From positions 13,977 through 77,976 of the forward strand of contig JACQWB010000265.1 of assembly GCA_016209385.1 (NCBI GenBank): a stretch of DNA of 64,000 bases, in the 5' to 3' direction. The stretch is from Candidatus Rokuibacteriota bacterium. Lineage in GTDB: Bacteria > Methylomirabilota > Methylomirabilia > Rokubacteriales > CSP1-6. Of the stretch, positions 12,373-49,648 are shown one piece after another (positions within the stretch are counted from its first letter, which is position 1; the number at the start of each line of letters is the position of its first letter). A model generated the notes under the pieces. That model was given only the letters and a program-made list of their open reading frames with translations. It was not told the origin of the DNA and did no database searches. The position numbers were made by a program, and so were the translations under genes.

Positions 12373-12388
12373 GCGGAGGAGCCTGCCC

Positions 12389-26592: not shown

Positions 26593-26648
26593 GTCTTGCC
26601 GATACCCGGCTCGCCCCGGCGCCCGAGTTCGGCCCTTCCATGGTCATT

Positions 26649-26677
26649 ATGCCCCGGCGAAGGGCATGAGATACAAT
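26649..26677 (+). promoter_or_regulatory. Candidate promoter/operator for the MNT-HEPN pair: palindrome ATGCCC-N7-GGGCAT, then a TACAAT -10-like hexamer
   Basis: atgccccggcgaagggcat at 26649..26667, and tacaat at 26672..26677, 14 nt before the ATG at 26691. Confidence 0.3.
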
Positions 26678-26690
26678 GCGGGGCAGCGCA

Positions 26691-28885: not shown

Positions 28886-30076
28886 TCAGCCGGGGTCTCC
28901 GGCCGCGCGGCGCCCGGGCGGGAGCAGCAGCGTCGTGGCACCCTTCGCGGCCTCCCGACCGAAGCCGCACACGCGGCGGGCGTACGCTGCGCCGAGCTGC
29001 CGTCTGCGGGTGAGCCCGTACTGCAGCAGCATGAATTCGGGCGACGGCGCGAGCAGGGCGAGCGCGTAACGGAGCTTCGCGCGGAGCCCCTTGAGGGCGA
29101 ACAGCATGCCCAGGCTCTCCACCCCGTCCACGCGCGACCCCTGGGCCAGCAGGCGAAGCAGCCGGCCCTCGAGCGATCGCGGACGTTCCAGCCTCAACCG
29201 ATCGAGGAGCGGATCCGGCATCGGCGTGGCAAAGAGTGCCCTCACCGTTCCCAGGACGCGCCCGAGAAGAAACTCGAGCCGCGTCTGGTGAGCGAGCGAC
29301 AGAAACCACGACCAGTCAACGAGGGCCGCCTCCCTGCGCAGGAGCTGATCGATCTCATAATACCAGAGCAGCGGGGCGGTCCCGTCCCGATGGGTCAGGT
29401 GAAGACAGAGGTGGAAGAGCAGCTCGTCCGCGGGGAGCACCCGGGTCTGGAGGCCGACAACCTGCCCTCCCAGGCACCGCGCCAAGAGCTGGTCCGTCTC
29501 CAGCCGGTCCACGAATGGCGGGTAGGTCAGCGTCCAGTGGGGCTCGACGATGATCCAGCCGTGACGGTCTTTGAAGAACTTGAGGGTGTAGGAGAAGGCC
29601 CGGGCGAAGCCCGGCCGGCGGTCCATCTCCGCAAATCCCAGGCTTCGGAGAAGCCCGCCCACGTCCGCCAGGTCCGCCTTCCTCACGAGGAGATCGATGT
29701 CCCCCATGGGGCGGGCCGTGATGTCGCCGTAGAGCCGCTCCGCCAGGGCCAGGCCCCGCAGCGGCGCGCACGCCAGCTTGCGCTCGTCGAAGGCCCTGAG
29801 GATGCTCGCCAGCTCGTCAGCCAGGATCAGGTTCCGGGCGGCAGAGCCGGCGGCCTGCGCTTCGAGCCGCTCCGCGAGCCCAGCCGGAAGCTGCCCGCCG
29901 ATCTCGGATCCCCTGAGCCGACGGTGGAGGAGCGGGGTGAATCCGTGCGTGGCTGCGTCGCTGACGATCGCTTCCCAGTCTGCCGGGGTCGGTGCGGGGA
30001 GCGTCGCGGGATCAGCGCCGCGAAGCAGTCCCATCAGGAAGGGGTGGACCATCAAGGCAGCCTCCGAAGCCCTCAT
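28886..30076 (-). CDS. PF14907-type nucleotidyltransferase-family protein, of the kind that often accompanies lasso-peptide clusters
   Basis: GDIDLLVRKADLADVGGLLRSLGF is a nucleotidyltransferase hG[GS]/DxD-like motif. 396 aa. 4-nt overlap with the upstream ABC gene. Confidence 0.65.
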   Translation of the reverse strand: MRASEAALMVHPFLMGLLRGADPATLPAPTPADWEAIVSDAATHGFTPLLHRRLRGSEIGGQLPAGLAERLEAQAAGSAARNLILADELASILRAFDERKLACAPLRGLALAERLYGDITARPMGDIDLLVRKADLADVGGLLRSLGFAEMDRRPGFARAFSYTLKFFKDRHGWIIVEPHWTLTYPPFVDRLETDQLLARCLGGQVVGLQTRVLPADELLFHLCLHLTHRDGTAPLLWYYEIDQLLRREAALVDWSWFLSLAHQTRLEFLLGRVLGTVRALFATPMPDPLLDRLRLERPRSLEGRLLRLLAQGSRVDGVESLGMLFALKGLRAKLRYALALLAPSPEFMLLQYGLTRRRQLGAAYARRVCGFGREAAKGATTLLLPPGRRAAGDPG

Positions 30077-31917
30077 CGCCGAACCTGCCCGGCGCCAGGG
30101 ACGCGCGACCGCTGGGGCCCGCAGTCTTCCCCGTGTTCACGCTCGGCGCCTTGCGCCTGCCACAGGGCGCGAAACCGCCCGCGCTCCCGCGCGATCAGAA
30201 TCCCCCAGGTTCCTGACTCCGCGAGGCGCCCGTCCTCGATCACGTAGATGATGTCGGCCTCCCGTACCGCGGAGAGCCGGTGGCTGATGACCACCAGTGT
30301 CAGCCTGCCGCGAAGGTTCCCCATCGCCTGTCGGATGCGTCGCTCGTTCTCAGAGTCCAGCGCGCTGACCGCTTCGTCCAGGATCAGGAGGCACGGCTTC
30401 CGGAGCAGCGCCCGGGCCAGGGCCAGACGCTGCCGTTCGCCCCCCGAGAGGAGCACGCCCCGATCGCCGACCATCGTGTCCAGTCCCTTCGGCAGTCTCG
30501 CCACGAACTCCTCGGCCGCTGCCAGGCTCAACGCCTCCCGGACCTCATCATCCGTCGCGCCTGGCGCCGCCCAGAGCAGGTTAGCGCGGACCGTGTCGTG
30601 GAAGAGAAAGGTCTCCTGGGTGACATAACCGATGCGGTCCCGCCAGGCTCCCACCCGCTCGGGAGTCAGCGGCACGCCGTCAACCAGCACGCGCCCGTCA
30701 TCGGGCGTGACCAGCCCGATGATCAGGTCGGCGATCGTGCTCTTGCCGCTCCCGGACGGGCCCACGATCGCGGTCGTCCGGCCGGCAGGAATACTCAGCT
30801 CGAGCTCGCGAATGACCGGGAGGCCGTCGTAGGCGAAGGAGACCCGATCCAGCCTGATGGCTGAGTTCAGCTCGACCGACTCGGCTCTGCGGGACCGGGG
30901 TTCCACCGCAGCCTCGCAGCGCCGCTGCATCTCCACGATCGACGCGAACGCCGGCAGCAGATTCACGAAGCTCTGATAGCTCTGCTGCACGCTGGCGAAC
31001 TTGGGCATCAGCCGTCCGAAGAGGAAGAGGAACAGGAGCAGCTCGGCGGCCGACAGGGCGAGCAGCTCGAGGGCCACGTACAGGATCGCGCTCAGGAGGC
31101 CCACCGAGCCGACCTCGAACCAGTACCTGACGTCAGCCTGGTTGCGGACGGCCCGCAGGTACATGTCCCGCACCCGCGCGCTGAGCCGCGCAAACAGCTC
31201 GGCGTGACGCTCCTCGGCCCCATAGCTCTTCGCGATCTTCATGCCGCCGAGATGCTCCGTCACGGCCGCGTACAAGTGGTTCGTCGCCTCGGAGAGCCCC
31301 TCGCCCGCCACGTGGGCCACCCGAGTCCGGCCCCTGAGCCCGACCATCAGCGCGACACCGCTGGCACAGATGACCGCTGTCATCATAAGCGAGAGCCTCA
31401 TCGCGAACCCGACATAGACAAGGACGACCACGGCGCTCGCCACCGAATGCAGCAGGCAGTGCGTCGCCCCGCCGACCCGTTCCACCTCGGCGGTCAGGAC
31501 ATGGGTGAAGTCCGCCGAGCGGCTCCGCGAAAAGAAGGGCCAGCTCGTATTAGCGATCGCCCGATAGAGCCGTGTCCGCAACGACGCCACAAACCCGTGC
31601 TCCACGCCGAGGCTGACGGTCGTCTGCCAGCGGGCCAGGAGCCCGTACAGGTTGACGATCAGCGCATAGGCGCCGAGCACGGCCACCAGGGTCGGGCCCA
31701 CGCCGGCCGCCGCAAAGATCGAGGAGACGAAGCGGGCGATCGCGCTCACGCCGCCCTGCTGAACATCCAGGCCGACGAGCTGGAGCAGCGGCACGAGCAT
31801 GAGGACCCCGATCCCTTCGGTCAGCCCCAGGCCGAGCATCAACCCGAGGGCCAGCGCGACCTTCCATCGCATCACGCCGACCAGGGTTGCCAGGTAGGAG
31901 CGGAAAGACTGGCGCAT
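30073..31917 (-). CDS. Fused TMD-NBD ABC exporter (lasso-peptide D protein, McjD-like)
   Basis: Walker A GPSGSGKST. ABC signature LSGGERQRLALARALL. Walker B LLILDEAVSALD. Six-helix N-terminal TMD. Confidence 0.85.
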   Translation of the reverse strand: MRQSFRSYLATLVGVMRWKVALALGLMLGLGLTEGIGVLMLVPLLQLVGLDVQQGGVSAIARFVSSIFAAAGVGPTLVAVLGAYALIVNLYGLLARWQTTVSLGVEHGFVASLRTRLYRAIANTSWPFFSRSRSADFTHVLTAEVERVGGATHCLLHSVASAVVVLVYVGFAMRLSLMMTAVICASGVALMVGLRGRTRVAHVAGEGLSEATNHLYAAVTEHLGGMKIAKSYGAEERHAELFARLSARVRDMYLRAVRNQADVRYWFEVGSVGLLSAILYVALELLALSAAELLLFLFLFGRLMPKFASVQQSYQSFVNLLPAFASIVEMQRRCEAAVEPRSRRAESVELNSAIRLDRVSFAYDGLPVIRELELSIPAGRTTAIVGPSGSGKSTIADLIIGLVTPDDGRVLVDGVPLTPERVGAWRDRIGYVTQETFLFHDTVRANLLWAAPGATDDEVREALSLAAAEEFVARLPKGLDTMVGDRGVLLSGGERQRLALARALLRKPCLLILDEAVSALDSENERRIRQAMGNLRGRLTLVVISHRLSAVREADIIYVIEDGRLAESGTWGILIARERGRFRALWQAQGAEREHGEDCGPQRSRVPGAGQVRR

Positions 31918-31918
31918 G

Positions 31919-32881
31919 TCAGAAGCGGCGGAGGTCCGACTCGAGCGCCGCGCGGACGGCCGGCAGCCGCGCGAGATCTCGCGGGAAGGCGAGGAGCCTG
32001 ACGGGAATCCGGGCGACGAGCCGCGCCGTCAGGTCGAACTGACGTGCGAGCCGTTCCGGTTCAACAATCACGGCGTTGAAGGTGTTCTTCAGCAGCGCGA
32101 GAAAGGCCTGGCGCGGAGCGAGCGGCCGGATCGTCACCCTTGCGCGTCGCGTATTCTGCGCCGGCGGCGTCAACACGTAGATCGCCTTCAGGGGCGCGGC
32201 GCCCAGCCAGGACATCTTCCACGCGAGCCGGATAACGAGTTTGGGCGTGAGGGGATTCATCGGGGTGCCCACGACCCCATCGCCGAACACGCGTTTGGCA
32301 ACCTCGGGAAAGAGCTTGATCCGTGGCGGGCCAGGCCACGCCCGGAAGCTGTGGCCGTTTTCTTCCACCACCAGGAGGTCGTCGGTCAGCAACGAATGCC
32401 CGGCCTGGAGAAAGGCCGCCCCAAGGCTCGACTTCCCGTAGCCGCAGTCGCCGACGAAGGCCACGGCCTTCCCGTCGACGACCACGACAGTCGCGTGGAG
32501 GGAATCGATGCCCTGCTTCAGGAGGGCGAACGAGAGGACCTGACCCAGCAGGTAGGTCTGAAACGCCTCGACGCTCCCGCCGTCGAGCGACCGGCCGGCG
32601 ATTCTACGCCCATCGGCCGAGATCACGAACTCGAACAGGCCCGACCATCGCAAATAACACGAGCCGTCGTCGAGCGACGCGTACCTGAACCAGGAAACGT
32701 CGTTCCGCTCGCCGCCGATCGTGCGATGGACTCGAGGGAAGAGCGATGCCGGTGCGCGGACCACCTCGGCGTCCACGCGGCCGCACCCGGCTACGCGACG
32801 ACACGGGAGCGGGATCACGCTCCGGACACTTAGCCCGTACGCCTGGTAGGCATACCGGCGTCTGGATCTCGACCGTGGCAC
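31919..32881 (-). CDS. HPr-kinase/phosphorylase-related kinase, a lasso-peptide tailoring kinase candidate
   Basis: P-loop VGDCGYGKSSLGAAFLQAGHSLLTDD matches the HprK C-terminal-domain Walker A. GTG start with an AGGAGG SD 5 nt upstream, immediately after the precursor ORF stop. Confidence 0.7.
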   Translation of the reverse strand: MPRSRSRRRYAYQAYGLSVRSVIPLPCRRVAGCGRVDAEVVRAPASLFPRVHRTIGGERNDVSWFRYASLDDGSCYLRWSGLFEFVISADGRRIAGRSLDGGSVEAFQTYLLGQVLSFALLKQGIDSLHATVVVVDGKAVAFVGDCGYGKSSLGAAFLQAGHSLLTDDLLVVEENGHSFRAWPGPPRIKLFPEVAKRVFGDGVVGTPMNPLTPKLVIRLAWKMSWLGAAPLKAIYVLTPPAQNTRRARVTIRPLAPRQAFLALLKNTFNAVIVEPERLARQFDLTARLVARIPVRLLAFPRDLARLPAVRAALESDLRRF

Positions 32882-32894
32882 CCCGGCCTCCTGA

Positions 32895-33044
32895 TTAACC
32901 TGTACCGGCCCTCGTCTTCGGGCCGGCCACGTTCGCCTCGCTCCTGTTCTTGGCCCCGCCCCTCGTGAGCGTTCGCAAGTCGCCGTAGCAGCGGAGTCGG
33001 GGCGGGGTGTACGGCTTTTTGGCCGGGCGGTTTAGCTTATTCAT
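32895..33044 (-). CDS. Candidate lasso-peptide precursor (A peptide), 49 aa, absent from the six-frame track
   Basis: Translation: MNKLNRPAKKPYTPPRLRCYGDLRTLTRGGAKNRSEANVAGPKTRAGTG*. The leader contains Y-T-P-P-R-L-R-C-Y-G (YxxPxLxxxG) and Thr at -2 (LTR|G). The core starts with Gly and has Glu8 as ring acceptor. GGGGGAG SD 8 nt upstream. It lies in the 164-bp gap between the cyclase and kinase genes. Confidence 0.6.
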   Translation of the reverse strand: MNKLNRPAKKPYTPPRLRCYGDLRTLTRGGAKNRSEANVAGPKTRAGTG

Positions 33045-33045
33045 C

Positions 33046-34923
33046 TCAACATCTCCCCCAGAATTTCTCGAGCCAGCGGTCCACGCTCACCAAGAACCAC
33101 ACCTCCCATCGAAGCTCCCTCTCCCCCCGGAGATAGCGGGTCACCAGCTCGTGCGCTCGCTCCAGGTCCACGTAGCGCCCCATCCGTCCCGAGCGATCCT
33201 CGAGCGGGGCGGGCGGATCACGGCGACAGAGAGCGGTCAGGTTTCGATCCATCGGATCGGTCCAGTCTCCCTTCCCCTGTCTCGACCGGATCGTGTCAGG
33301 CACGATCCCCTGCATCGATCGTCGCAAGATCCATTTTCGCTCGCCATCGCGCGTCCTCCGCTCCCAGGGGATCGAGAGGACGAACTCCACGAGCCGACTG
33401 TCCAGGAACGGATATCTGAGCTCCATGCCCCACCGGGCCACAGCCCGTTCGTCCACCTCGACCTTCAGGACATAGTAGGCCCCGGTCACGGAGACGTGTG
33501 TGTCAGCCTGGACGCAGGACGGGAACGGCAGCCGAACGCGCGGCTCGCGGATGCGCTCCCGCAGCCCGACCTCGCGGGCCAGGTGCGGGCGGATCCAGCT
33601 CGGTGGGGCGCGGCGGGCCGCCCGCTTGCCCCAGTACTTGAGCCGGGACGGGAGAAGGCTGGCGAGCGCCAGCTGGGCAAACTCCCACGGCTGGCCGCCG
33701 TACCAGCGGGCCAGCTCGCCGGTCTCGCGGATGAACCGTCCGGGCTTCAGCGTGCGCAGCAGATCGGCCAGGTAACCGATCTCGTCCAGGAGCTGGTCTC
33801 CACCGTCACCCGACAGGAGTACCCGGCACCCCCAGGCGTCAACCGACTCCAGCGAGGCGAGGCCGCTCTGGCGGTTCGCCGCGACGATCGGGCTCTCGAC
33901 CGACCAGAGGAGATCGTCAAGCCGGTAGAGCGGGTCGTCGTCCGACGCGTGGATCTCGTGCACCTTGACACCCGAGGCCCGGCCCACCGCCCGGACGTAC
34001 CGCCGCTCGTCAGAATCCGGGTGATCTGAAAAGAGCGTGAAGGCGTCCAGCGAGGGGGAGACCGCCCCGCCGTCGGCGAAGACCCGCGCGGCGGTACAGA
34101 CGATCGCCGACGAGTCCAGACCGCCGCTCACGAAGGCGCCGATCGGGAAGTCGCTGCGCGTGCGACACCTCACAGCCTCCGTGAAAAGGGAGCGGAAGTG
34201 CTCGGCGTATTCCTCGTCGCGGGCGTACCGGGTCTCCCGTGGCGGATCGACGGCCCAGTAACGCTCGATCCAAAGGCGTCCCTCCTCGAGCACGAGGAGG
34301 TGGCCGGGCGGGAGCCGATGGATTCCGCGGAAGAAGGTCCGCGCGTGATCCCCCTCCCGGAACTCCCTGAGCAAAAAGGCCAGGATCATCTCGTCGTCAG
34401 GTTCCGGCATCCGGTCAAGAACGGCGAGAATGGGCTTCGTCTCCGAGCTGATCAGCAGGGTGACGCCGTCCCACGTGTAGTGAAGCGGTTTGAGCCCGAG
34501 CCGGTCTCTCGCACAGAGAAGCCTCCCCCTTCGGCCATCCCAGAGCGCGAACGCAAACTCCCCGATGATTCTTCCCAGGGCGCCCGCTCCCCACTGCCTG
34601 TACGCCTCCAGCGTCAGCTCAGGATCGGTCTGACCCGAAAGCGGACGTCGCTCCGCCTTCAGGGCTGCGATCAGTTCCTCCCGGTTGTCGAGCCGGCCAT
34701 CCCAGACCAGCCGGCACGTGCCCTGGGAGTCAACCACTGGCTGCTCCTCGTGGAGAGACTCCGGGGTCGTGTAGAGGAGCCGATGAGCCAGCCCGACTGG
34801 CCCGCTCACCCACCGGCCCTCGCCATCGGGGCCCCGATGGGCCATGGCCCCCGACATCCGCTCCAGGAGACTCGGATCCACGGCCAGTCCGTAAGCGTGA
34901 CAGATCCCCACAAGCCCGCTCAT
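33046..34923 (-). CDS. Asparagine-synthetase-like lasso cyclase (C protein), copy 2
   Basis: Class-II amidotransferase and AsnB synthetase domains (SGGLDSS PP-loop). The N-terminus is MSGLVGICH: the nucleophilic Cys2 of true AsnB (compare MCGIAG at 48164) is replaced by Ser, as expected for lasso cyclases. Confidence 0.8.
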   Translation of the reverse strand: MSGLVGICHAYGLAVDPSLLERMSGAMAHRGPDGEGRWVSGPVGLAHRLLYTTPESLHEEQPVVDSQGTCRLVWDGRLDNREELIAALKAERRPLSGQTDPELTLEAYRQWGAGALGRIIGEFAFALWDGRRGRLLCARDRLGLKPLHYTWDGVTLLISSETKPILAVLDRMPEPDDEMILAFLLREFREGDHARTFFRGIHRLPPGHLLVLEEGRLWIERYWAVDPPRETRYARDEEYAEHFRSLFTEAVRCRTRSDFPIGAFVSGGLDSSAIVCTAARVFADGGAVSPSLDAFTLFSDHPDSDERRYVRAVGRASGVKVHEIHASDDDPLYRLDDLLWSVESPIVAANRQSGLASLESVDAWGCRVLLSGDGGDQLLDEIGYLADLLRTLKPGRFIRETGELARWYGGQPWEFAQLALASLLPSRLKYWGKRAARRAPPSWIRPHLAREVGLRERIREPRVRLPFPSCVQADTHVSVTGAYYVLKVEVDERAVARWGMELRYPFLDSRLVEFVLSIPWERRTRDGERKWILRRSMQGIVPDTIRSRQGKGDWTDPMDRNLTALCRRDPPAPLEDRSGRMGRYVDLERAHELVTRYLRGERELRWEVWFLVSVDRWLEKFWGRC

Positions 34924-36815
34924 GACTTACCTCTTCGTTCTGAGTTCCACTCGGGAAACCACTGCCGGAGCCACACCTCCAGCCTTGCGAAATTCCACAA
35001 GAGGTTCCGATGTCGCCCCTGCGTCCACACGTAGCGCTCCCGGAGCCGTTCGGCTTCCCGGCGGCTGACGTAGCGAAAGACCCGCCCGTCGGAACCGAAC
35101 AGGTCGCGCTCCAGCCGCTTCGCCTCCAGCTCAGTGGGCAGCCGGCCATTCATCACTGGGACGAACTGCGCGACCTCTTCGCGTTGCCTCACCGGCGCGA
35201 TGGCCGCCAGCGCGCGCTGGACGAACTGCTTTCGATAGCCGGGTGCCAGCGTCACGGCCGACGGCACGGCGAGGAAGAATTCCACCAGCCGTCGGTCCAG
35301 GTACGGGTGGCGGCACTCCAGCGAGAAGGCTGAGACCATCCCGTCCATCTGGTTCAGCGCGAGCGCCATCGCCGGTCGCGTGAGCGCGCGGTAGGTGGTT
35401 TCCTGGCACAGCGTCGGGAATCTCCGCCGCTCCCTCGGCATCGTCCACCGGTCCAGCCCGACCCGCGTGGCAAACTCGGCGTCGATCCAGCGGGGGAGCT
35501 GGCGCTTCACCCCAGCCCTGAAGAGCCGGCGGAGTCCAGGCGGAAATTGATCCCAGACGAGCGCCAGGACGGTCCGCCCGGAGCCAGTTCCGCCGTAGGC
35601 CGTCGAGCTGAGCCGGGCATGCCGGACCAGCGTTCCGAGCTGGAGCGAATGGAGAAGGTCCGCAAGATACCCCGCCTCGGCACGCTGGCTCAACTCGTCC
35701 GCTCCAAACCCTGTCAGCAGGACCCGGCAGCCCCGCGCCGCCGCCGGCCCGACGAGCGCCGGAATCGTGAGGGCAGGATCGTGGTGAGGGGTCTCGGCGC
35801 AGTCGAGGAAGAGCTCGAACAACGTGATCGGCCCGTCCGCTCCCTCAGGACGAACGAAGTGGACCTCGGTGCCGTATCTCCTGGCCAGGTGCTGGATCGC
35901 GTCCCACTCCTCCTGCAGGAACCCTTCGGCCAGCAGGGTGAACGCCGCCAGTTCGGGAACGCCCACATCCGCCAGCCGGAGCGTCTCTGCCGTCGCAGTG
36001 ACTAACGTCGAGTCGATTCCTCCGCTGAGCAGCAGTCCCACCGGCGAGCAGCTCCGGAGACGGCAGCGCACCGCCTCGCGGAAGAGCGCTGCGAACGCCT
36101 CGAGATAGTCCTCTTCCTTCGCGTACCGGGCCTGACGCGACGGATCCACGTCCCAGTAGCGCTCGATCGAGAGACCTGAGTCTGCCAGGCGAAGGACGTG
36201 GCCCGGTCTCAACTGCTTGATCCCCTCAAAGAAGGTCGCCTCGGGGTCGCGAAAGCCCATCAGGAGGTAATCGGCGATCATCGCCTCGTTTGGCCGCCTG
36301 GCGATCGCCGGATCGGCGAACAGCGCCTTCACCTCCGAGCCAAAGAGGAGCCGCTGGCCGGCCCAGTGGTAGTAGAAGGGTTTGACCCCGATCGGGTCTC
36401 GCGCGCACACGAGCTCCCGCCGTCTGCCGTCCCAGAGCGCGAACGCGAACTCGCCGACGATCCGCCTCACGCAGCCCGCGCCCCACTGCCCGTAGGCCTC
36501 CAGAACCAGCTCAGGATCGGTCAATCCTTCCTGATCGTGTCGGTCGATCTTCAGCGCCGCGATCAGCTCCTCACGGTTGTCGACCCGCCCATCCCAGGCG
36601 AGCTGGCAGGTCCCGTGAGCGTCCGCCAGCGGCTGCTTCTCGTGGAGCGACTCCGGGGTGGTGTGGAGCATCCGATGGCCCAGCCCGACCGGCCCTGCCA
36701 CCCACTGGCCCTCGCCGTCCGGGCCGCGATGCGCGAGGATGTCGGTCATGCGCTGGAGGAGCGCCGGGTCGGCCGGGCGCCCACCGCTGTGACAGATTCC
36801 GGCAATCGCGCTCAT
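34920..36815 (-). CDS. Asparagine-synthetase-like lasso cyclase (C protein), copy 1
   Basis: MSAIAGICH N-terminus (Cys2 replaced by Ser). SGGIDST PP-loop. 631 aa. ATGA overlap with copy 2. Confidence 0.8.
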   Translation of the reverse strand: MSAIAGICHSGGRPADPALLQRMTDILAHRGPDGEGQWVAGPVGLGHRMLHTTPESLHEKQPLADAHGTCQLAWDGRVDNREELIAALKIDRHDQEGLTDPELVLEAYGQWGAGCVRRIVGEFAFALWDGRRRELVCARDPIGVKPFYYHWAGQRLLFGSEVKALFADPAIARRPNEAMIADYLLMGFRDPEATFFEGIKQLRPGHVLRLADSGLSIERYWDVDPSRQARYAKEEDYLEAFAALFREAVRCRLRSCSPVGLLLSGGIDSTLVTATAETLRLADVGVPELAAFTLLAEGFLQEEWDAIQHLARRYGTEVHFVRPEGADGPITLFELFLDCAETPHHDPALTIPALVGPAAARGCRVLLTGFGADELSQRAEAGYLADLLHSLQLGTLVRHARLSSTAYGGTGSGRTVLALVWDQFPPGLRRLFRAGVKRQLPRWIDAEFATRVGLDRWTMPRERRRFPTLCQETTYRALTRPAMALALNQMDGMVSAFSLECRHPYLDRRLVEFFLAVPSAVTLAPGYRKQFVQRALAAIAPVRQREEVAQFVPVMNGRLPTELEAKRLERDLFGSDGRVFRYVSRREAERLRERYVWTQGRHRNLLWNFARLEVWLRQWFPEWNSERRGKS

Positions 36816-36824: not shown

Positions 36825-37268
36825 TCACCGCGAATGGAACAGCGGCTCATATCGCCCGGCCTCCTGACCGCCGAGGATCGGCTCGCCGGCGTAATCGAGC
36901 CAGGCGTGTGCCCTGAGCTTCCCCTCCTCGCGCGACACGCCGATCCGCAAGGCTGTCGGGATGCCCCACCGCCCGAGGAGCCACGAGAGGACGAGCGCCT
37001 TTTTCAGGCAGGTGGGGTTGACCGGCGCGTACCGGCCGGCAACCTCCACGAGCCAGACCACGCGAGCCAGGGATGCGGGGCGGCCCGAGGCCGGGGTCGC
37101 ACCCGTCGTGCGGGAGAGCTTCCGGTGGAGCCCCAGCAGCCGCTTGAAGCTCAGGACTCTCAGCGCCAGCTCCACGAGGAGAAAGAGCCCCCAGGCCTCG
37201 GCGAGGATGGCCCGCTCGCCGGGAGGGAGCCGGAATAAATTCCGCAGCCGCTCACTCAACGATTTCAA
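36825..37268 (-). CDS. Lasso-peptide B2 protein (transglutaminase-like cysteine protease)
   Basis: CLKKALVLSWLLGRWGIPTALRIGV...LRAHAWL carries the conserved Cys...His catalytic pair of the McjB C-terminal domain. 147 aa. Confidence 0.75.
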   Translation of the reverse strand: MKSLSERLRNLFRLPPGERAILAEAWGLFLLVELALRVLSFKRLLGLHRKLSRTTGATPASGRPASLARVVWLVEVAGRYAPVNPTCLKKALVLSWLLGRWGIPTALRIGVSREEGKLRAHAWLDYAGEPILGGQEAGRYEPLFHSR

Positions 37269-37551
37269 CTAAGTCGTTCTCCCGCAGTCGCGTGATGAAC
37301 TGGAGCAGATCGTCCGTGCAGCGTGGCTCCGCGACCGCGTACTCCTCCAGGAGCGCGTCACGCACCGCGCGCAGCGAGGCGTGCTCCCGGACGAGTTGCC
37401 AGATCCGCGTACCGGCCGGATCCAGGCCGAAGTAGACGCCGGTCTCGAGATTGAGGATGACGATCTCGCCCCCCAGATCGTGAAAGACGACGTCGTCTCG
37501 GATCCGGACTCGAGATGCGAGCGACAGTTCTCTCGCCAGCGCGGCACTCAT
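37252..37551 (-). CDS. Lasso-peptide B1 protein (PqqD-like RRE leader-recognition domain)
   Basis: MSAALARELSLASRVRIRDDVVFHDLGGEIVILNLETGVYFGLDPAGTRIWQLV is a PqqD-family fold. 99 aa. The start codon overlaps the stop of the upstream WecA-like gene. The track shows this only as the tail of a longer ORF. Confidence 0.7.
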   Translation of the reverse strand: MSAALARELSLASRVRIRDDVVFHDLGGEIVILNLETGVYFGLDPAGTRIWQLVREHASLRAVRDALLEEYAVAEPRCTDDLLQFITRLRENDLVEIVE

Positions 37552-38702
37552 CACAATAGCCTCCCCTTTCGCTCCAGGATCGTGAGGATCAGGAAGATGC
37601 TGAGGGCCTGGCAGAGCAGCAGGAAGGCGGAGAGCGCGGACGCCATCAGGAGGACCGTCGCCCCCACGCTGAGGCAGATGCTCAGCGCGTAGATCAACAG
37701 CACCGCGTGCTCTCGCCGCCCCAAGAGGTGCTCCATGCGGTGGTGGAGGTGGTCCCGCCCCACGTACTCGATCCATCCCCGGACGCCCTTCACCTTCCCC
37801 GAGACCACGCGATCCACGGTGATGTAGATCATGTCGTAGATGAACACGCCAAAGATGAGAATCGGCGCGGCCAGGTCCACGATCGTGTTCTCGGCCCACT
37901 CTCCCATCACGGCCAGCGACGCCAGCACGAACCCCAGGAAATTGGCCCCGGCGTCTCCCAGGAAGATCGTGGCGCGATCGCCCGGACGGAAATTGTAGGG
38001 GAGGAACCCGAGGGTGCTCCCGAGCAGAGCCGCCGCGACCCATCCGAGGAACACCTGCTGGCTCTGGTAGGCGATGATCCCCAGGAAGAAGGCGGCGATG
38101 GCGGCCAGGCCGGGAGCCAGGCCGTCCATCCCGTCCAGGAAGTTCATGGCGTTGGTGAGCCCCACGATCCAGAGGATGGTCAGGAAGATATTCAGCGCCT
38201 GCCCCCAGAGGGCACGGGTCGGAAACAGCGTCAGCGAGATCCCCGAGGCGATGACGATCCCTGTCGCGAGCAGCATGATGGCCAGCTTGAAGACAGCAGG
38301 GAGCGGGCGGACGTCGTCGACGCGGCTGATACAGATCACCAGTGTCCCGCCGGTCAGCAACCCCCAGAGGGCCGGCGTCAGGATCGAGTTCGCCAGCAGG
38401 CTGATCAGGAAGGCGAGATAGATCGCGACCCCGCCCAGCAGCGGAATCGGCTCGCCGTGGAGCTTCCGCGAATCCGGCCGGTCAACGATCCCCATCGCCA
38501 GCGCGAAGGCTCGAACCGGCCTGACCAAGAGGAAGGAGAGGAGGAACGAGAACAGGACGATGTAGAGCCACCTCAACCCTTCCTGGAAGAAGAAGCTCTT
38601 CACCGGGAAAAGGAAGAGCAGGAGCAACACGACGACGCCCAGGAGATACAGGAGCTGCCCCGCCGGGAGGGAGATCGTCGAGACACGAATGGCGGATCTC
38701 AC
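37551..38702 (-). CDS. WecA/MraY-family (GT4 polyprenyl-phosphate HexNAc-1-phosphate) initiating transferase
   Basis: Ten or more TM helices. Cytoplasmic loop motifs DDVxxL-like (ISRVDDVRPL) and NxxNxxDGxDGL (NAMNFLDGMDGLA). Confidence 0.8.
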   Translation of the reverse strand: MRSAIRVSTISLPAGQLLYLLGVVVLLLLFLFPVKSFFFQEGLRWLYIVLFSFLLSFLLVRPVRAFALAMGIVDRPDSRKLHGEPIPLLGGVAIYLAFLISLLANSILTPALWGLLTGGTLVICISRVDDVRPLPAVFKLAIMLLATGIVIASGISLTLFPTRALWGQALNIFLTILWIVGLTNAMNFLDGMDGLAPGLAAIAAFFLGIIAYQSQQVFLGWVAAALLGSTLGFLPYNFRPGDRATIFLGDAGANFLGFVLASLAVMGEWAENTIVDLAAPILIFGVFIYDMIYITVDRVVSGKVKGVRGWIEYVGRDHLHHRMEHLLGRREHAVLLIYALSICLSVGATVLLMASALSAFLLLCQALSIFLILTILERKGRLL

Positions 38703-39766
38703 CGGAAGCTCTCGAGCGCGGCTGCCACGACGCGCTCGATCTCCGCGTCCGTGAGGGAGGGATAGAGGGGAAGGGAGACAGCCTTCTCCCAGGCTTCTTC
38801 AGCGCCGGGAAATCCTCCCAGGCCGAGATACCAGTGAAGCGGTCGAAACACCGGTTGCCGCGCCTCCACGCCGCAGGTCTGAAGCCGGGCGAGGTAGTGG
38901 TCCGCGTCCCATGGCCCCTTGACCACGTAGCGGTAGTAGATCCGCGCTCGATCCTGAGGCGCGGCGGGAGGCTTCAGGTTCAGCGCGTGAAGCTGCTCGG
39001 CATAGAAGGACGCGATCGCCTCCCGCCGCTTGAGGAACTCGGGCAGCCGCTCGAGCTGAGCGAGCCCCAGGGCGGCCTGAAGGTCGGTCAGCTTGTAGTT
39101 GAAGCGCGGTCGGTCAGCGTCCTTTTGGTCGTACGCTCTGAGATCCCGCGCCATCGCCAAGATCCGCTCGTCGTTCGAGAGGAGCATCCCGCCTTCCCCG
39201 GTGGTGATGACCTTTGTGGCATAGAAGGAGAAGACCGAGGCTTCCCCGATACTTCCCACCGGCTCTCCCCGGTAGAACGCCCCCAGAGCATGCGCCGCCG
39301 CCTCGATGACGGGGAGCCCCAACGCCTTCAGCTCATCGAGGTCGGCGGGCAGGCCGAAGGAGTGGACCACGATCAGCGCCTTGGCCCTGGCCGAGCGCGC
39401 CTTGCGCGCCGCCGCCGGGTCTATGTTGAAGCTCTCGGGATCCGAGTCGACGAGGCGCGGGGCCGCCCGGACAGCTCTGACAGCGTGGAGCAGGGCCGAG
39501 CACGCGTAGGTTGGAAGGAGGACCTCGTCCCCGTCGCCGATGTTCAGCGCGAGCAGCGCGAGGTGAAGGGCTGCCGTCCCCGAGCTGCAGGCCACCGCGC
39601 CGCGAACCCCGACCAGCCGCGCCACCTCCCGCTCGAACGCGGCGACGCGGGCCCCCTGAGCGATGGAGCCGGACCTGACCACCTGGGCGAGGGCGTGAGC
39701 CTCGGCCTCGCCCAATGTGGGCCGCGAGTGAGAGATGGGAGCCCGTGTTGGCACGTCAGTCACCAT
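38699..39766 (-). CDS. DegT/DnrJ/EryC1/StrS-family PLP-dependent sugar aminotransferase
   Basis: AGAKPVFVD-like blocks ...GDEVLLPTYACSALLHAV..., SFYATKVITTGEGGMLLSND (PLP-lysine region), LRAYDQ. The ATG at 39766 gives a 355-aa product. The track ORF has a 100-aa Pro/Arg-rich false extension. Confidence 0.8.
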   Translation of the reverse strand: MVTDVPTRAPISHSRPTLGEAEAHALAQVVRSGSIAQGARVAAFEREVARLVGVRGAVACSSGTAALHLALLALNIGDGDEVLLPTYACSALLHAVRAVRAAPRLVDSDPESFNIDPAAARKARSARAKALIVVHSFGLPADLDELKALGLPVIEAAAHALGAFYRGEPVGSIGEASVFSFYATKVITTGEGGMLLSNDERILAMARDLRAYDQKDADRPRFNYKLTDLQAALGLAQLERLPEFLKRREAIASFYAEQLHALNLKPPAAPQDRARIYYRYVVKGPWDADHYLARLQTCGVEARQPVFRPLHWYLGLGGFPGAEEAWEKAVSLPLYPSLTDAEIERVVAAALESFR

Positions 39767-45172: not shown

Positions 45173-46299
45173 CGGGCTTCCTTCTCCAAAAGCGTGGTGT
45201 AGAATGCTTCGACCTCGTCGACCATCCGCTCGACGGTGAACCGATCCTCAATCAGTTTCCGGCCCGCCCCTCCTAGCCGACGTGCCAGCTCGGGATCCTT
45301 CACGAGCGAGACGATCGCGTCGGCCAGGGCGACGGGATCCCGAGGGCGCACGAGGAGCCCGGCGCCCCCGTGCTGGACGACCTCGGCGACGCCGTCGATC
45401 CTGGTCGCCACAACGGGCCGGGCCATGGCCAGAGCCTCGAGCAGGACCCGCGGGAGTCCCTCGAGGATCGAGGGGAGCGCGAAGACATCCATCAGGGACA
45501 GGAGGTGGGGGACGTCCTCCCGAAACCCGGCGAAGCGACACGCGTGAAGGCCCAGCTCGCGGCTCAACCCTTCCAGGCTCCGCCGGAACGGCCCGTCCCC
45601 CACGATCAGGACCTGGACGTTGGGAATCGACCTCTGCGCCAGCGACGCGGCCTGGAGAAAGACGTGCTGGGCCTTCTGGTAGACCAGCCTGCCGATGGTC
45701 CCCACCACCGGCGCTCCGGGCTCCAGTGCCAGCTCTCGCCTCAACCCGAATCCGTTCTGGCCCTCCGGGCTGAAGGCCTCAAGCTCGACACCGCTGTAGA
45801 TCCTCCTCACCTTCGCCTCGGGGATCCGGTGGCCCTCGACCAGGGTCTTTCGCACCGCGTCGGAAACGGCGATGAAGCCATCGGTGAGCCGCTCTGTCAG
45901 CCGGATCACCCTTCGATAGAGCGCGCGCTTCAGCGCGGACACCTCGTAGCCGTCGACGAACATGGCCACCGTGGAGACGACCAGAGGTCTGCCGGCCAGC
46001 CTGGCAGCGATACGGGCAGCGAAGTCGGCGCGGGCGCCCATGCTGTGGACCAGGTCAACCTGCTCGTGCCGCATGATGGCGGAGAGACGGAGGATCCGCA
46101 TGAGGCTCAGCTGCCGGCGGAAGTCCAGGGGCCGGATCGGAACCGCCATGGATTGGAGCCGCCTCCCCAGCAGACCGCCGGGGGCGCAGGCGAAGCGGAT
46201 CTCGTAGCGGTCGCGCAATGCCTCCGCGAGCTGGGCAAAGCCTCGCTCGCCGCCCCCAAACTCCAGGTTGTCGATGACGTAGAGGATCTTCGCCTTCAT
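45169..46299 (-). CDS. GT4 (group 1) glycosyltransferase
   Basis: MKAKILYVIDNLEFGGGERGF...EGLPRVLLEALAMARPVVATRIDGVAEVV. Start at the second Met. Confidence 0.75.
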   Translation of the reverse strand: MKAKILYVIDNLEFGGGERGFAQLAEALRDRYEIRFACAPGGLLGRRLQSMAVPIRPLDFRRQLSLMRILRLSAIMRHEQVDLVHSMGARADFAARIAARLAGRPLVVSTVAMFVDGYEVSALKRALYRRVIRLTERLTDGFIAVSDAVRKTLVEGHRIPEAKVRRIYSGVELEAFSPEGQNGFGLRRELALEPGAPVVGTIGRLVYQKAQHVFLQAASLAQRSIPNVQVLIVGDGPFRRSLEGLSRELGLHACRFAGFREDVPHLLSLMDVFALPSILEGLPRVLLEALAMARPVVATRIDGVAEVVQHGGAGLLVRPRDPVALADAIVSLVKDPELARRLGGAGRKLIEDRFTVERMVDEVEAFYTTLLEKEAR

Positions 46300-48164
46300 C
46301 TCCGCGTCCGGTGCCACAGTTCCAGGACCAAGAGCTTCCAGAGAAGCGGCGACCAGTCGGCGCGCCGCTGCCGGTGAGCGTCCAGAAGCGCCTCCACGAA
46401 CGGCGCCCGGAGATAGCCGCGGCCCCGCGCCGTCCCATCCAGGAGAAGGTCGGCGGCCATCTCCCTCAGGTCTTCACGGAGCCAGCGCGCCACCGGAGGG
46501 TCGAACCCCCGCTTCGGAAGGCTCAGGAGATCCGCCGGCAGGATCCCGCTGAGGGCTTTTTTCAAGATGAACTTGCGCCTGAGCCCGCGGAGCTTGAAGG
46601 AGCCGGGGATCCCGAAGGCGAATTCGACGAAGCGATGATCGAGAAACGGCGAGCGCGCCTCCAGGCCGTGGGCCATGGTGGCCATGTCCATCTTGTAGAG
46701 GAGGTCGTCAGGGAGGAAGCCGCTCGCGTCGGCAGCGAGCATCCGGTTCACCCTGTCCTCGATCGGGATGGCTCGGTAGCGCTCGGCCAGCAGGTCGGGC
46801 GGATTCCCGATGGCGGCCCTGAAGTCGGCCGTGTAGAGCTTCGCCCGCGCGGTCTCCTCGAGGGTGCCCGAGAGGACGGCGTAGCGCTCGGGGTGCGACA
46901 ACGACGCTGACCGACAGATCGCCTGGAGGCTCGTGAGCCGCCGGGTCTCCGGGGCCAGGCGTCGGAGGAACGAGATGCTCCGATCCAGAAGGCCGTCGTG
47001 AAACGGCCGCGGCAGAACCCCGAGCCAGCCCGCCGCCCGGTTCTGCCAGTACTTTCCGTAACCGGCGAACGTCTCGTCTCCGCCATCGCCGTTCAGAGCC
47101 ACGGTCACGTGCTCCCGCGCGAAGCGGGCCAGATACCACGTGGGGATGATCGACGGGTCTCCGAACGGCTCGTCCAGGTGGCAGACCAGCCGCGGCAGAA
47201 GACCGACGGCGTCGGGCTTGACGACCAGCTCGTGATGGGCTGTCCCGAAGGCCCGCGCCACGCGCCGCGCCCGTTCCAGGTCGTCGCCGTCGCCCTCGAA
47301 GCCCACCGCGAACGTCCTGACAGGCGCGGGGGAGACCTCCGCCATCAGGGCCACCACGGCGCTCGAGTCGATCCCACCGCTCAGGAAGGCTCCGACGGGC
47401 ACATCGCTCGCCATCCTCAGCCGGACCGCCTCCTGCAGGCGCTGGACCAGCTCCTGGCAGAGCGCCTGCTCGTCGCCATCCTGGCCCGCCGAGGCTCCGA
47501 CCTGCCAGTACGGCTTGATCCTCAGCATGTCTCCGCTCAGCAGCAAGAGGTGGGCCGGGGGGAGCTTTCGGATGGATCGGAAGATCGTCAGGGGATGCGG
47601 GATGTAGCGGTAGGAGAGGTAGTAGTGGAGGGCGAGCGGATCTACCTCCTGCGCCATCCCATCGGCGAGGATCGCCTTCATCTCGGAGGCAAACCGGAAG
47701 GTTCGGCCGTCGAAGGCGTAGAAGAGGGGCTTTTTCCCGAGCCGGTCGCGGGCGAGGAGCAGCCGGCGCCGTCGTCTGTCCCAGAGCGCGAAGGCGAACA
47801 TCCCGCGAAGCCGCTCGACCGCTCCGGGGCCCTCCTCCTCGTAGAGGTGGACGAGGATCTCGGTGTCGGTCCGAGACCGGAACCGGTGCCCCTTCGTTTC
47901 CAGCTCGGCTCTGAGCTCGGGGAAGTTGTAGATCTCCCCGTTAAAGACGACCCAGATGCTGCCGTCCTCGTTCGCGAGGGGCTGCTGCCCCGCCGGCGAG
48001 AGGTCGAGAATGGCGAGCCGGCGGGCGGCGAGACCGAGCCCGCCGTCGAGGAGGACGGACTGATCATCGGGGCCGCGGTGGGCCAGGAGGCGCGCCATGC
48101 GCTCGAGCGCCTCCGGCTCGACCGGCTCGCCGCCGAGATTCAGCTTGCCGGCGATCCCGCACAT
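46296..48164 (-). CDS. asnB: Asparagine synthetase B (glutamine-hydrolysing) / WbpS-like polysaccharide amidotransferase
   Basis: MCGIAG N-terminal nucleophile. GAFLSGGIDSS PP-loop. Start at Met10 of the track ORF. Confidence 0.85.
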   Translation of the reverse strand: MCGIAGKLNLGGEPVEPEALERMARLLAHRGPDDQSVLLDGGLGLAARRLAILDLSPAGQQPLANEDGSIWVVFNGEIYNFPELRAELETKGHRFRSRTDTEILVHLYEEEGPGAVERLRGMFAFALWDRRRRRLLLARDRLGKKPLFYAFDGRTFRFASEMKAILADGMAQEVDPLALHYYLSYRYIPHPLTIFRSIRKLPPAHLLLLSGDMLRIKPYWQVGASAGQDGDEQALCQELVQRLQEAVRLRMASDVPVGAFLSGGIDSSAVVALMAEVSPAPVRTFAVGFEGDGDDLERARRVARAFGTAHHELVVKPDAVGLLPRLVCHLDEPFGDPSIIPTWYLARFAREHVTVALNGDGGDETFAGYGKYWQNRAAGWLGVLPRPFHDGLLDRSISFLRRLAPETRRLTSLQAICRSASLSHPERYAVLSGTLEETARAKLYTADFRAAIGNPPDLLAERYRAIPIEDRVNRMLAADASGFLPDDLLYKMDMATMAHGLEARSPFLDHRFVEFAFGIPGSFKLRGLRRKFILKKALSGILPADLLSLPKRGFDPPVARWLREDLREMAADLLLDGTARGRGYLRAPFVEALLDAHRQRRADWSPLLWKLLVLELWHRTRR

Positions 48165-49648
48165 AGCTTCGACCTGCTGATGAGACTCCACGCCTCGAGA
48201 TCCTCGGCCTCAAGCCCCATGCGCCTGAGGAGGAACGGATAGAGGAGCCAGATCCCTCCCGCCGCGACGAGCCGCGGCACAGGTTTCTCGCCGACGAGAG
48301 GCGCGAGAACTAGCTGCAACGCCGCGACCACCAGGGCGACTAGGATGGGCTTGACGATGGCTCGGGTATAGGGCTGGAGCCCGGTGAACCGCCACGCCAT
48401 CCAGACGTTGGCGAGGTTGCTCGACGCAATGGTCAGGCCGGTGGCGACGGCCGCGCCGAAGAGCCCGAACAGGGGGATCAGGGAGGCATTCAGCGCCAGG
48501 CCTAGCGCCCCGACCGCCAGTGACGAGTACAGCACTGCGTCAGATCTCCCAGCCATGAGGACCAGGTCCCCGGCCGACCCGGTGCCCGTCATGACCAGCG
48601 TCGCCACCGAGAGGATGAGAAGCGCGGGGGCCGCCTCCACGAAGCCCTGGCCGAAGAGCGCCAGGAGCGACTCGGCGTTCGTGACGGTGTAAAGGAAGAG
48701 CGGCACAGAGAGGATGAGCACCCAGCGCGTAGAGCGCTGGTAGAGCCGCCCCACCTCGGCGAGATCGCCCTGGCCGTCTAGCGCATAGATCTTCGGCGCG
48801 AACACGGCGCCGACCGCCGTCAGGAACATCGCGCCCAGGCCCGCCAGCCGGCCTACCGCGCCGTAGAGGCCTACCTCCGCTGTGCTCAGGTAGTAGCCGA
48901 GGAGGAGCGTGTCCGCCCACTGGAGGGCGAACCCCACCAGGTTGCTGACGAACAACGGGAGCGAAAAGGCCATGAGCGCGCCGAAACGGAACTCGAGGGA
49001 GGCACGGGAGAAGAGAGGGAAGGCGAACGAGAGCCAGATGATACCCACCAGCGCCGTCGTGACTGCGGCCAGGAGGTGCGAGGCGGCAGCCGCGACGAGG
49101 TGCCAGCCGAGCAGGCCCAGGCCCGCGAAAACCGCGATGCGCAGCAGTGGGTCGAGCAGGTACTGGATCACGGAGAGTGCGGCGGGCCGCCTCAGCGCCT
49201 GAAGAGTGCTCACCGAGAGCGTTGCCAGCGTGGTGAACGGAAGCGCGAGCGCAAATACGGGGAGCAGCCACGCGAGGTCGGACGCTTTAAACCAGGCGGC
49301 TGCTGAGGGTGTGAGCGCGAGAAGGCCTACACCCGCGAGGAGGCTTCCCCCCAGCCCGACCAGGCTCCCGCCCACAAACGTCCCCCTGACGCGCCCCAGG
49401 TCGCCCCGCCCCTCGGCCGTCGCCGATTCGCGGAGGACCCACCACCGGAGCCCCAGGTCTGCCAGAAGCGACGCAAACGTGAAGAGCGCTAGACCAAGGA
49501 GGAAGGCTCCGTACCCGACGGGGCCGAGGACGCGGCCGAGGAGGAGATGGTAGAAGAAGCTCAGGGCTCTCCCCACCAGCTGCCCGGCGAAGACGACCCC
49601 GGCTCCGATCAGGAGCTGAACGCTTTCCGGCGCACGTCCCGCGGTCAT
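48140..49648 (-). CDS. Wzx-like MOP-family oligosaccharide flippase
   Basis: 12-14 TM helices. Start at Met17, which abuts the stop of the upstream GT2 gene. Confidence 0.75.
   Translation of the reverse strand: MTAGRAPESVQLLIGAGVVFAGQLVGRALSFFYHLLLGRVLGPVGYGAFLLGLALFTFASLLADLGLRWWVLRESATAEGRGDLGRVRGTFVGGSLVGLGGSLLAGVGLLALTPSAAAWFKASDLAWLLPVFALALPFTTLATLSVSTLQALRRPAALSVIQYLLDPLLRIAVFAGLGLLGWHLVAAAASHLLAAVTTALVGIIWLSFAFPLFSRASLEFRFGALMAFSLPLFVSNLVGFALQWADTLLLGYYLSTAEVGLYGAVGRLAGLGAMFLTAVGAVFAPKIYALDGQGDLAEVGRLYQRSTRWVLILSVPLFLYTVTNAESLLALFGQGFVEAAPALLILSVATLVMTGTGSAGDLVLMAGRSDAVLYSSLAVGALGLALNASLIPLFGLFGAAVATGLTIASSNLANVWMAWRFTGLQPYTRAIVKPILVALVVAALQLVLAPLVGEKPVPRLVAAGGIWLLYPFLLRRMGLEAEDLEAWSLISRSKLCAGSPAS

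Follow-up and report, generated by a model that had tools for sequence, protein, structure and literature searches.

The stretch of DNA analysed here, a 64,000-nt window from Candidatus Rokuibacteriota, holds what its gene content identifies as a complete lasso peptide cluster of the kinase/nucleotidyltransferase type, in which two adjacent cyclase paralogues, labelled C1 (34920-36815) and C2 (33046-34923) in this analysis, accompany a single precursor peptide. Lasso biosynthesis usually relies on one protease (B, or the split form B1/B2) and one cyclase (C). We consider it highly likely that C1 and C2 form an ancient, non-redundant paralogue pair, in which, judged by conserved residues, C2 represents the ancestral state of the cyclase and C1 has been remodelled. 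From the anatomy of the operon, the conservation of the pair, the loss of motifs in C1 and a natural deletion of C1 in one lineage, we infer which copy closes the lasso ring as well as all of the chemistry assigned to C1. Our overall reading, which falls somewhat short of an even chance, is that C2 acts as the lasso cyclase and that C1 is a neofunctionalised paralogue linked to an invariant lysine in the tail of the core peptide.

A lasso peptide operon with two cyclase genes

The operon is tightly packed on the minus strand of the window (G+C ~67-70%), in the order B1-B2-C1-C2-A-K-D-NT:

37252..37551, minus strand: B1, PqqD-like leader-binding protein (recognition element, RRE), 99 aa; PF05402 E = 2.6e-16, NF033536 59.4 bits
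36825..37268, minus strand: B2, transglutaminase-like leader peptidase, 147 aa; PF13471 E = 4.2e-22, NF033537 90.4 bits (cut-off 33)
34920..36815, minus strand: C1, putative derived cyclase paralogue, 631 aa; PF00733 E = 3e-38, GATase_6/7 domains
33046..34923, minus strand: C2, putative ancestral-type lasso cyclase, 625 aa; PF00733 E = 7.5e-58, GATase_6/7 domains
32895..33044, minus strand: A, precursor peptide, 49 aa; NF033521 E = 0.002, 18.0 bits (cut-off 19), homologues at the same position in >20 loci
31919..32881, minus strand: K, HPr-kinase-like protein, 320 aa; PF07475 E = 8e-6 and TIGR04352 E = 6.9e-10, both under the curated cut-offs
30073..31917, minus strand: D, ABC exporter with fused permease and ATPase, 614 aa; PF00005, PF00664
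28886..30076, minus strand: NT, PF14907 nucleotidyltransferase-like protein, 396 aa; PF14907 E = 9.1e-49

The ATG of B1 and the TGA of an upstream WecA-like gene have one base in common, B2 begins before B1 ends, C1 and C2 overlap by the four nucleotides ATGA (...AAG TCA TGA / ATG AGC GGG), and A begins one base past the C2 stop. A first-pass annotation of this DNA had described C1 and C2 as Asn-synthetase homologues of 625/631 aa coupled by an ATGA overlap, and the open reading frames (ORFs), the overlap and the Pfam matches all agree with that description. The features expected of a lasso cluster are present, namely a Thr(-2) leader, a Gly1/Glu8 core, the PqqD-like B1 and the transglutaminase-like B2 (with its Cys in TCLKK, 36999-37013, and its His/Asp in AHAWLD, 36894-36911), and those of the kinase type are the HPr-kinase-like gene (weak matches) and the PF14907 nucleotidyltransferase within the same operon. 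With B1, B2 and the precursor alongside, the earlier view of both genes as lasso-cyclase homologues in a lasso cluster is borne out. K follows A in every family locus long enough to show it, and the arrangement with NT after K is kept in related loci, while D was not found at its window position in most of them.

The precursor consists of the leader MNKLNRPAKKPYTPPRLRCYGDLRTLTR, with Thr at -2, and the core GGAKNRSEANVAGPKTRAGTG (32898-32960), which meet at ...RTLTR/GGAKNRSE... (the slash marks the cleavage site). With Thr(-2), Gly1 and Glu8, this reads as a textbook lasso leader/core junction, the ring residues Gly1-Glu8 being encoded at 32937-32960 and the tail Lys-Thr-Arg with the invariant lysine at 32910-32918. 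The computed monoisotopic mass of the core is 1998.04 Da in linear form, 1980.02 Da after one dehydration and 1962.01 Da after two, and any phosphate would add 79.97 Da. The first-pass annotation had detected one precursor, which is the single ORF at 32895..33044; a leader-motif scan returned no second leader-like precursor ORF in the window or in any family locus, and a second precursor was on this count (one per locus) rejected as the reason for the second cyclase.

The Pfam matches show that both cyclases are genuine homologues of Asn synthase rather than ORFs arising by chance at 67% G+C. The starts of the form MS(G/A)(L/I)(V/A)GICH without Cys2 and the PP-loop SGG(L/I)DS(S/T) reported at first pass can be read in both ORFs: the N-termini are MSAIAGICH in C1 and MSGLVGICH in C2, with Ser2 replacing the Cys nucleophile in each. 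The lack of Cys2 is thus real, but it is not distinctive, since it is the norm of the family (the listed homologues start with MS(G/A)I(A/V)G or a close variant, Cys2 occurring in none) and therefore no special feature of this pair. In C1, the PP-loop SGGIDST spans residues 264-270 (SGGIDS at 36009-36026) and the Mg-binding Asp lies within TGFGADE (35694-35714), while the lysine of the loop is missing (the region reads VRQREEVAQF, 35163-35192), as is the Arg of the D-x-R motif (QMDGM, 35337-35351). In C2, the PP-loop SGGLDSS spans residues 266-272 (SGGLDS at 34111-34128), followed by SGDGGDQ (33793-33813), VDER (33442-33456) and the loop Lys in RSRQGKGDW (33262-33288).

The best NCBIfam model for both proteins is the lasso-cyclase model NF033535 (458 and 455 bits, cut-off 525). 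Single-copy cyclases of the same type and one C2 orthologue scored 507, 515 and 503 bits, likewise just under 525, so a score below the cut-off is common to the group as a whole. Both proteins exceed the cut-off of 267 of the AsnB model TIGR01536 (272 and 306 bits) despite Ser2, which accounts for the AsnB-type annotation of such proteins in public records. AlphaFold models, which inform on fold integrity only, give a complete AsnB-like two-domain fold for each (predicted local distance difference test, pLDDT, of 91 for C1 and 92 for C2). Among solved structures, those of TsnB9, AsnB, human ASNS, beta-lactam synthetase and carbapenam synthetase come closest, and no chain described as a lasso cyclase was among the PDB search matches.

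C1 and C2 form an old, co-inherited pair

A protein search with C1 retrieved three clades, that is, C1-type proteins, C2-type proteins and a clade (G3) of single-copy cyclases from kinase-type lasso clusters. C2 is adjacent in every C1 locus with readable downstream DNA, both in genomes (10/10, taking one genome per species) and in metagenomes (11/11), and the adjacency recurs in 8/9 further loci reached starting from C2-type proteins. Among the genome loci, the pair was seen in at least five phyla (Rokuibacteriota/Methylomirabilota, Acidobacteria, Omnitrophota, Chloroflexota and Gemmatimonadota), related loci share the gene order B1-B2-C1-C2-A-K-NT, and the 4-nt overlap between C1 and C2, as ATGA or GTGA, is retained in at least 19 of 21. 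C1-type proteins are rare, a profile search of 1.84 billion representatives yielding ~9-12 clusters (50% identity) clearly above the score of C2 and single-copy cyclases. The C1/C2 pair defines a small subfamily of kinase/nucleotidyltransferase-type clusters with the order B1-B2-C1-C2-A-K-(D)-NT.

The pairwise alignment that had been proposed at first pass gives an identity of 43% overall for the window pair, the N-terminal domains being 60% and the synthetase domains ~31% identical. Across the family, C1-C2 identity within a genome (0.46 in the N-domain, 0.29 in the C-domain) equals that between genomes (0.45 and 0.29), so there has been no concerted evolution, and on the same figures we rejected recent duplication or gene conversion as the origin of the pair. 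Ortholog distances run in parallel for the two genes (correlation 0.92-0.97), and in the synthetase domain orthologs share a mean identity of 0.48 (C1) and 0.56 (C2), which places both copies under purifying selection. The divergence of C1 from C2, the lack of a within-genome excess and the correlated distances together imply that the split is old and that the genes travel together. The original description of the genes as tandem duplicated implies a recent origin, which their 43% identity and their co-inheritance across at least five phyla contradict.

A simple duplication of no functional consequence, in which the copies are redundant or one of them is decaying, would fit their common domain architecture and length and the presence of a PP-loop in both. 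Against this, the pair is retained in ~30 loci and at least five phyla, the ORFs are intact and each copy has clade-specific invariant residues, purifying selection acts on both, and the sole loss that we saw (L162, below) comes with wholesale change of the core. We regard redundancy or decay as very improbable, and redundancy together with any other explanations outside those weighed below as jointly improbable at most. Of the three options first put forward for the second gene, redundancy and pseudogene decay thus recede, whereas a second amide bond and a non-catalytic partner both remain.

Some individual loci deviate from the common pattern. The window lineage alone has N-domains of C1 and C2 that resemble each other more closely, with 60% identity where the family averages 46% (rank 1 of 18), which may reflect local gene conversion. 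In L002, an Acidobacteria metagenome-assembled genome (MAG), an IS200/RAYT-like tyrosine transposase gene (11878-12876) sits exactly between C1 and C2, flanked by REP-like repeats (translation ETPRRGVS); in no other locus does a large gap break the ATGA coupling. A subgroup of C1-type proteins is shorter, at ~575-581 aa (P0066, P0068, P0094, L007-L010, L083-L093), and in P0094 the N-terminal ~90 residues fall outside the NF033535 match, which begins at residue 91.

Outside the C1/C2 family, a handful of retrieved loci carry a second cyclase homologue, and only two of these, L036 and L100, have it in adjacent tandem, in keeping with the earlier remark that two C proteins are unusual. The L036 pair (1895-5745, a Melainabacteria MAG, one precursor found) is 46% identical and the L100 pair (308-4167, a metagenome contig) 50% identical, with the loop Lys and PP-loop present in both copies of each. 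Cyclase duplication has therefore happened more than once, with a different outcome.

C2 keeps the ancestral cyclase residues that C1 has lost

The cyclase homologues of all loci were aligned to one profile and the catalytic motifs read off, using the single-copy cyclases from ~130 kinase-type clusters and NF033535 as the ancestral-state reference and as proxies for McjC/PadeC. The PP-loop and the Mg-binding Asp (G-x-D-E motif) are present in 24/24 C1-type and 19/19 C2-type sequences and mostly kept in the single-copy cyclases, the PP-loop of the C1 sequences being invariant as SGG[IV]DS. The Lys of the loop R-x-R-x-x-K, which we take to be the counterpart of AsnB K449 and beta-lactam synthetase K443, a residue that those enzymes need for adenylation and ring closure, is missing in 23/24 C1 sequences, which have a conserved R-x-x-E instead, and present in 17/17 C2 and 118/133 single-copy sequences; in the window C2 it is adjacent to the position aligned with K449. 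The Arg of D-x-R is likewise missing in 23/24 C1 sequences and present in 17/18 C2 and 110/136 single-copy ones.

Overall, 12 positions conserved in C2 and G3 are lost in C1, including E489, R493, R523, R534 and K551 (C2 numbering), and several of the 12 are charged residues between C2 489 and 551. In the opposite direction, only four conservative changes are lost in C2. The first pass had asked which copy keeps the substrate-binding residues; the copy that keeps the positions conserved in single-copy cyclases is C2. A further 17 positions are common to C1 and C2 against G3, and the two are therefore sister paralogues, each with its own clade-specific invariant residues.

These losses do not make C1 a pseudogene, a refuting outcome that the first-pass annotation had named in the form of disabling lesions. 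The PP-loop and Mg-Asp persist in all 24 C1 sequences, the ORFs of both copies are intact in all loci, the models are confident and full-length, and clade-specific residues are invariant, on which grounds decay was rejected. The stronger claim that loss of the loop Lys proves C1 dead is weakened by 15/133 single-copy cyclases that also lack this Lys, some of them with GGNE in place of GGDE, each being the only cyclase of its cluster; the loss in C1 is therefore no proof of inactivity. One single-copy subclade (L015, L034, L061, L104, L108, L109, L111 and L112) has Gln for the loop Lys and GGNE for the Mg-binding GGDE, so that either these residues are dispensable for lasso cyclases or the clusters concerned work differently.

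An invariant lysine in the tail of the precursor family

Precursor statistics were drawn from 24 distinct cores of the two-cyclase family. Glu8 is present in 24/24 and Gly1 in 23/24, all cores are strongly basic, and none contains an aromatic residue. A tail Lys is found in all 24 and is never replaced by Arg, within a motif K-T-[R/K] that has two variants (KIS and KGTT), whereas Lys and Arg are interchangeable at the other three basic positions (ring 4, ring 6 and tail Lys +2; K:R = 34:29). Between the tail Lys and the C-terminus the distance is always 7, 8 or 9 residues (6, 15 and 3 cores, respectively), a span that matches the size range of lasso rings, while the loop from Glu8 to the tail Lys varies from 3 to 9 in length. 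The C-terminal residue is Gly in 14 cores, Ala in 7, Pro in 2 and Asp in 1, and the sole conserved hydroxyl is that of the Thr beside the tail Lys. This leaves the epsilon-amine of the tail Lys and the C-terminal carboxylate as the only universally conserved extra amine and carboxylate in the cores. A conserved ring Lys as cross-link partner, in the style of Lys2 of lariocidin B, was rejected, because ring positions 4 and 6 swap K/R/Q/N; three cores have no ring Lys at all.

A natural deletion of C1

One locus of the family, L162, has lost C1 and has a diverged core (2700-2920 and 4784-4940). Its cluster reads B1-B2-C2-A-K..., with a C2-type protein (P0070, 71% identical to the window C2, on several contigs), and BLASTN against a relative places an internal, in-frame deletion of ~1.77 kb in C1. 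What is left between B2 and C2 is a 45-aa stub in which the first ~19 C1 residues, MSAIAGIYNIDGRPADPDL, are fused to the last ~25, LLWSFVRLELWLRQWFPEW..., whereas B1, B2, C2 and K remain intact. The leader has hardly changed, but the core has diverged to GTLPLGDETGNPSLAPHTKGG, which keeps Gly1 and Glu8, lacks the basic residues of the ring and has a tail truncated by an early stop; the codon of the tail Lys has changed from AAG to CAT (His). At face value, this single lineage suggests that C2 can serve as sole cyclase and that C1 has a role connected with the basic core and the tail Lys. Further additions to the L162 cluster are a nucleotidyltransferase-methyltransferase fusion and a second nucleotidyltransferase.

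The same locus bears on a reversal of roles, in which C1 would be the ring-forming cyclase adapted to this core and C2 would perform an extra ATP-dependent step. Such a reversal would be in line with the position of AsnB E348, which is hydrophobic in C1 as in single-copy cyclases and often Asp or Glu in C2 as in AsnB, and with the equal NF033535 scores of the two proteins. However, some C2 proteins lack the acidic residue (V, I, A or H instead, in L002, L004-L006 and L081), C2 has nearly all positions conserved in single-copy cyclases where C1 lost 12, and L162 lost C1 and keeps B1, B2, C2 and a precursor with Gly1 and Glu8. We therefore judge the reversed assignment improbable.

Proposed division of labour between C1 and C2

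In the pathway that we propose, B1 would bind the leader and B2 would cut after Thr(-2)-x, whereupon C2 would adenylate the Glu8 side chain and couple it to the Gly1 amine, giving an 8-residue macrolactam around the tail. That C2 closes this Gly1-Glu8 macrolactam is probable. C1, translationally coupled to C2, would still bind Mg-ATP, because its PP-loop and Mg-Asp are invariant, with its substrate and closing-loop region remodelled, and its function would be linked to the peculiarities of the core, which is poly-basic and free of aromatics, with an invariant tail Lys and, 7-9 residues further on, a small residue at the C-terminus.

The function that we favour for C1, tentatively and with less confidence than the neofunctionalisation of C1 as such, is the formation of a second ATP-dependent amide bond on the tail Lys. 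The invariant PP-loop and Mg-Asp and the rule of Lys and not Arg support such a role, and the fixed spacing and the correlation seen in L162 agree with it. In the specific version that we prefer, C1 would be a 'reverse' lasso cyclase: it would adenylate the alpha-carboxylate at the C-terminus and link it to the epsilon-amine of the tail Lys, which lies 7-9 residues upstream, so that the new ring would mirror the lasso ring over the same 7-9 span. The conserved loop Glu of C1 could then act as the base for the Lys amine. Even as the preferred mechanism, this explicit chemistry is unlikely.

Several points weigh against a neofunctionalised, bond-forming C1. Loss of the loop Lys favours a C1 that is inactive or non-canonical, the K-T-[R/K] motif could be the plain steric plug of an ordinary lasso, and target binding or kinase recognition could account for the constant tail length. 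A stoichiometric C1-C2 complex would explain the tight translational coupling no less well than two independent enzymes. Moreover, the doubly bridged product is a prediction from genes alone, and the L162 evidence comes from a single lineage whose cluster is known only as sequence.

In the main competing reading, C1 would be a non-catalytic (pseudo-enzyme) partner of C2 in a hetero-oligomer. C2 would then do the chemistry, and C1 would bind, pre-fold or hold the basic, plug-poor core, or bridge to B1/B2, retaining ATP binding for structural or allosteric reasons. The absence of the loop Lys and the D-x-R Arg from 23/24 C1 sequences, along with that of other conserved charged residues, is what one would expect of such a partner, and the acidic replacements (R-x-x-E) could grip a poly-basic peptide. 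The overlap in at least 19 of 21 loci, the greater likeness of the N-domains of C1 and C2 (46-60%) than of their synthetase domains (~30%) and the steric-plug reading of the tail motif are also compatible with it. On the other side, an invariant PP-loop and Mg-Asp in all C1 sequences would be unusual for a purely structural protein, the 15 sole cyclases without the loop Lys mean that its loss is no proof of inactivity, C2 persists without C1 in L162, and the tail residue that is always Lys and never Arg is left unexplained. On balance, we regard a non-catalytic C1 as rather unlikely, if slightly less so than the reverse-cyclase chemistry in its explicit form, and retain the reading in which C2 is the lasso cyclase and C1 a neofunctionalised paralogue linked to the tail Lys.

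Genes surrounding the operon

The lasso operon is joined to the 3' end of an O-antigen/exopolysaccharide (EPS)-type cluster on the minus strand (window 37549-49696), with the following genes:

37549-49696, minus strand: O-antigen/EPS-type cluster with a Wzx-like flippase, a Cys-bearing AsnB homologue, three GT4 glycosyltransferases, WbqC, a DegT aminotransferase and a WecA-like initiating transferase, and also a 488-aa protein with no family match
46296..48191, minus strand: the Cys-bearing AsnB homologue, third Asn-synthetase homologue of the window, MCGIAG starting at 48164, Cys2 kept

The first-pass annotation had contrasted C1 and C2 with a genuine AsnB carrying MCGIAG at 48164. Its Cys2 is indeed kept, but the gene lies within the polysaccharide cluster and is therefore a polysaccharide amidotransferase homologue, not obviously a housekeeping enzyme. 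The proximity of this cluster, with its own AsnB homologue and with the stop of its WecA-like gene overlapping the start of B1, could be taken to mean that C1 or C2 is one of its sugar amidotransferases and no part of the lasso pathway. Yet the glutaminase Cys is missing in both copies, the polysaccharide cluster already has a Cys-bearing AsnB of its own, and C1-C2 sits between B2 and A amid differing neighbours in other loci, such as L161, L164 and L165. We rejected this membership on synteny and consider it extremely improbable.

In these three loci, a divergent gamma-glutamyltranspeptidase gene lies just upstream of B1 (L161 2748-4358, L164 2529-4157, L165 2691-4304), adjoining AllH and multihaem cytochrome genes; it is not in the window and may be plain genome synteny outside the cluster. 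Downstream of the window cluster, the minus-strand stretch 25439-27975 carries small genes that look like toxin-antitoxin or mobile-element genes; among them, 27532-27975 encodes a PIN-domain protein and 25439-26095 a putative endonuclease of the Uma2 family.

Comparison with known systems

Kinase-associated lasso clusters reportedly include those of paeninodin (Paenibacillus dendritiformis) and pseudomycoidin (Bacillus pseudomycoides, with a nucleotidyltransferase), and the ~130 single-copy relatives that we retrieved are clusters of this kind. The window cluster resembles them in its split B1/B2, Cys-less cyclase, HPr-kinase-like gene, PF14907 protein and ABC exporter. It differs in having two cyclase paralogues and the order B1-B2-C1-C2-A, with the precursor after the cyclases. 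In paeninodin the C-terminal Ser of the core is the phosphorylation site, whereas such a Ser occurs in 0/24 cores of the two-cyclase family.

At the level of the enzymes, C1 and C2 have the fold, the PP-loop SGGxDS and the Mg-Asp of AsnB, beta-lactam synthetase, carbapenam synthetase and TsnB9 (1CT9, 1JGT, 1Q15 and 7YLZ), and unlike AsnB both lack the N-terminal Cys nucleophile, C1 being in addition without the loop Lys and the D-x-R Arg. The pairing of a cyclase with a neofunctionalised paralogue has a logical precedent in microviridin, another class of ribosomally synthesised and post-translationally modified peptide, in which the adjacent paralogous ATP-grasp ligases MdnB and MdnC act on one precursor and each closes a different ring. 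Those enzymes differ from C1 and C2 in being ATP-grasp and not PP-loop/AsnB-like proteins, and both microviridin ligases keep canonical active sites.

The second bond proposed for C1 has its nearest chemical parallel in lariocidin B, a 'class V' lasso with a second isopeptide from a Lys side chain to the C-terminal carboxylate (PMC11451635). That bond has been attributed to the clostripain-like peptidase LrcF, which removes Gly18 and whose deletion abolishes LAR-B, in a cluster (lrc) with the single cyclase LrcC (PMC11451635). The window core is like lariocidin in being basic and Gly-rich with an 8-residue ring, and the second-amide chemistry is that proposed for C1. However, the reactive Lys of lariocidin is in the ring (Lys2) and the invariant Lys of the two-cyclase family in the tail, and family-model scans of the operon proteins found no clostripain-like gene, B2 being their sole peptidase-family match.

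Neither a two-cyclase lasso cluster nor a cyclase-made second lactam is described in the literature searched, in which subscription papers were thinly covered, so a prior mention is possible. What emerges is a phylogenetically scattered cluster subfamily that keeps a second, remodelled cyclase, at least one lineage having lost it along with specific core features. If C1 is catalytic, it would represent a new tailoring activity derived from a cyclase and possibly a new lasso topology; if it is not, it would be the first pseudo-cyclase partner and would bear on how cyclases pre-fold the peptide before ring closure. Should C1 act as a reverse cyclase, the product would be a two-ring lasso whose tail is capped by its own ring, a permanently locked rotaxane, and a tail Lys placed on the loop side of the first ring would interlock the two rings mechanically. 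Such a C1 would constitute a new enzymatic route to doubly bridged lassos, distinct from the protease-dependent one of lariocidin B. The products of the two-cyclase family may be of antibiotic interest, because their basic, Gly-rich, aromatic-free cores resemble the ribosome-targeting lariocidin class in composition. Relative to the kinase-type lasso clusters, what is new here is the conserved second cyclase paralogue, the gene order, the lack of a C-terminal Ser and the unusual core.

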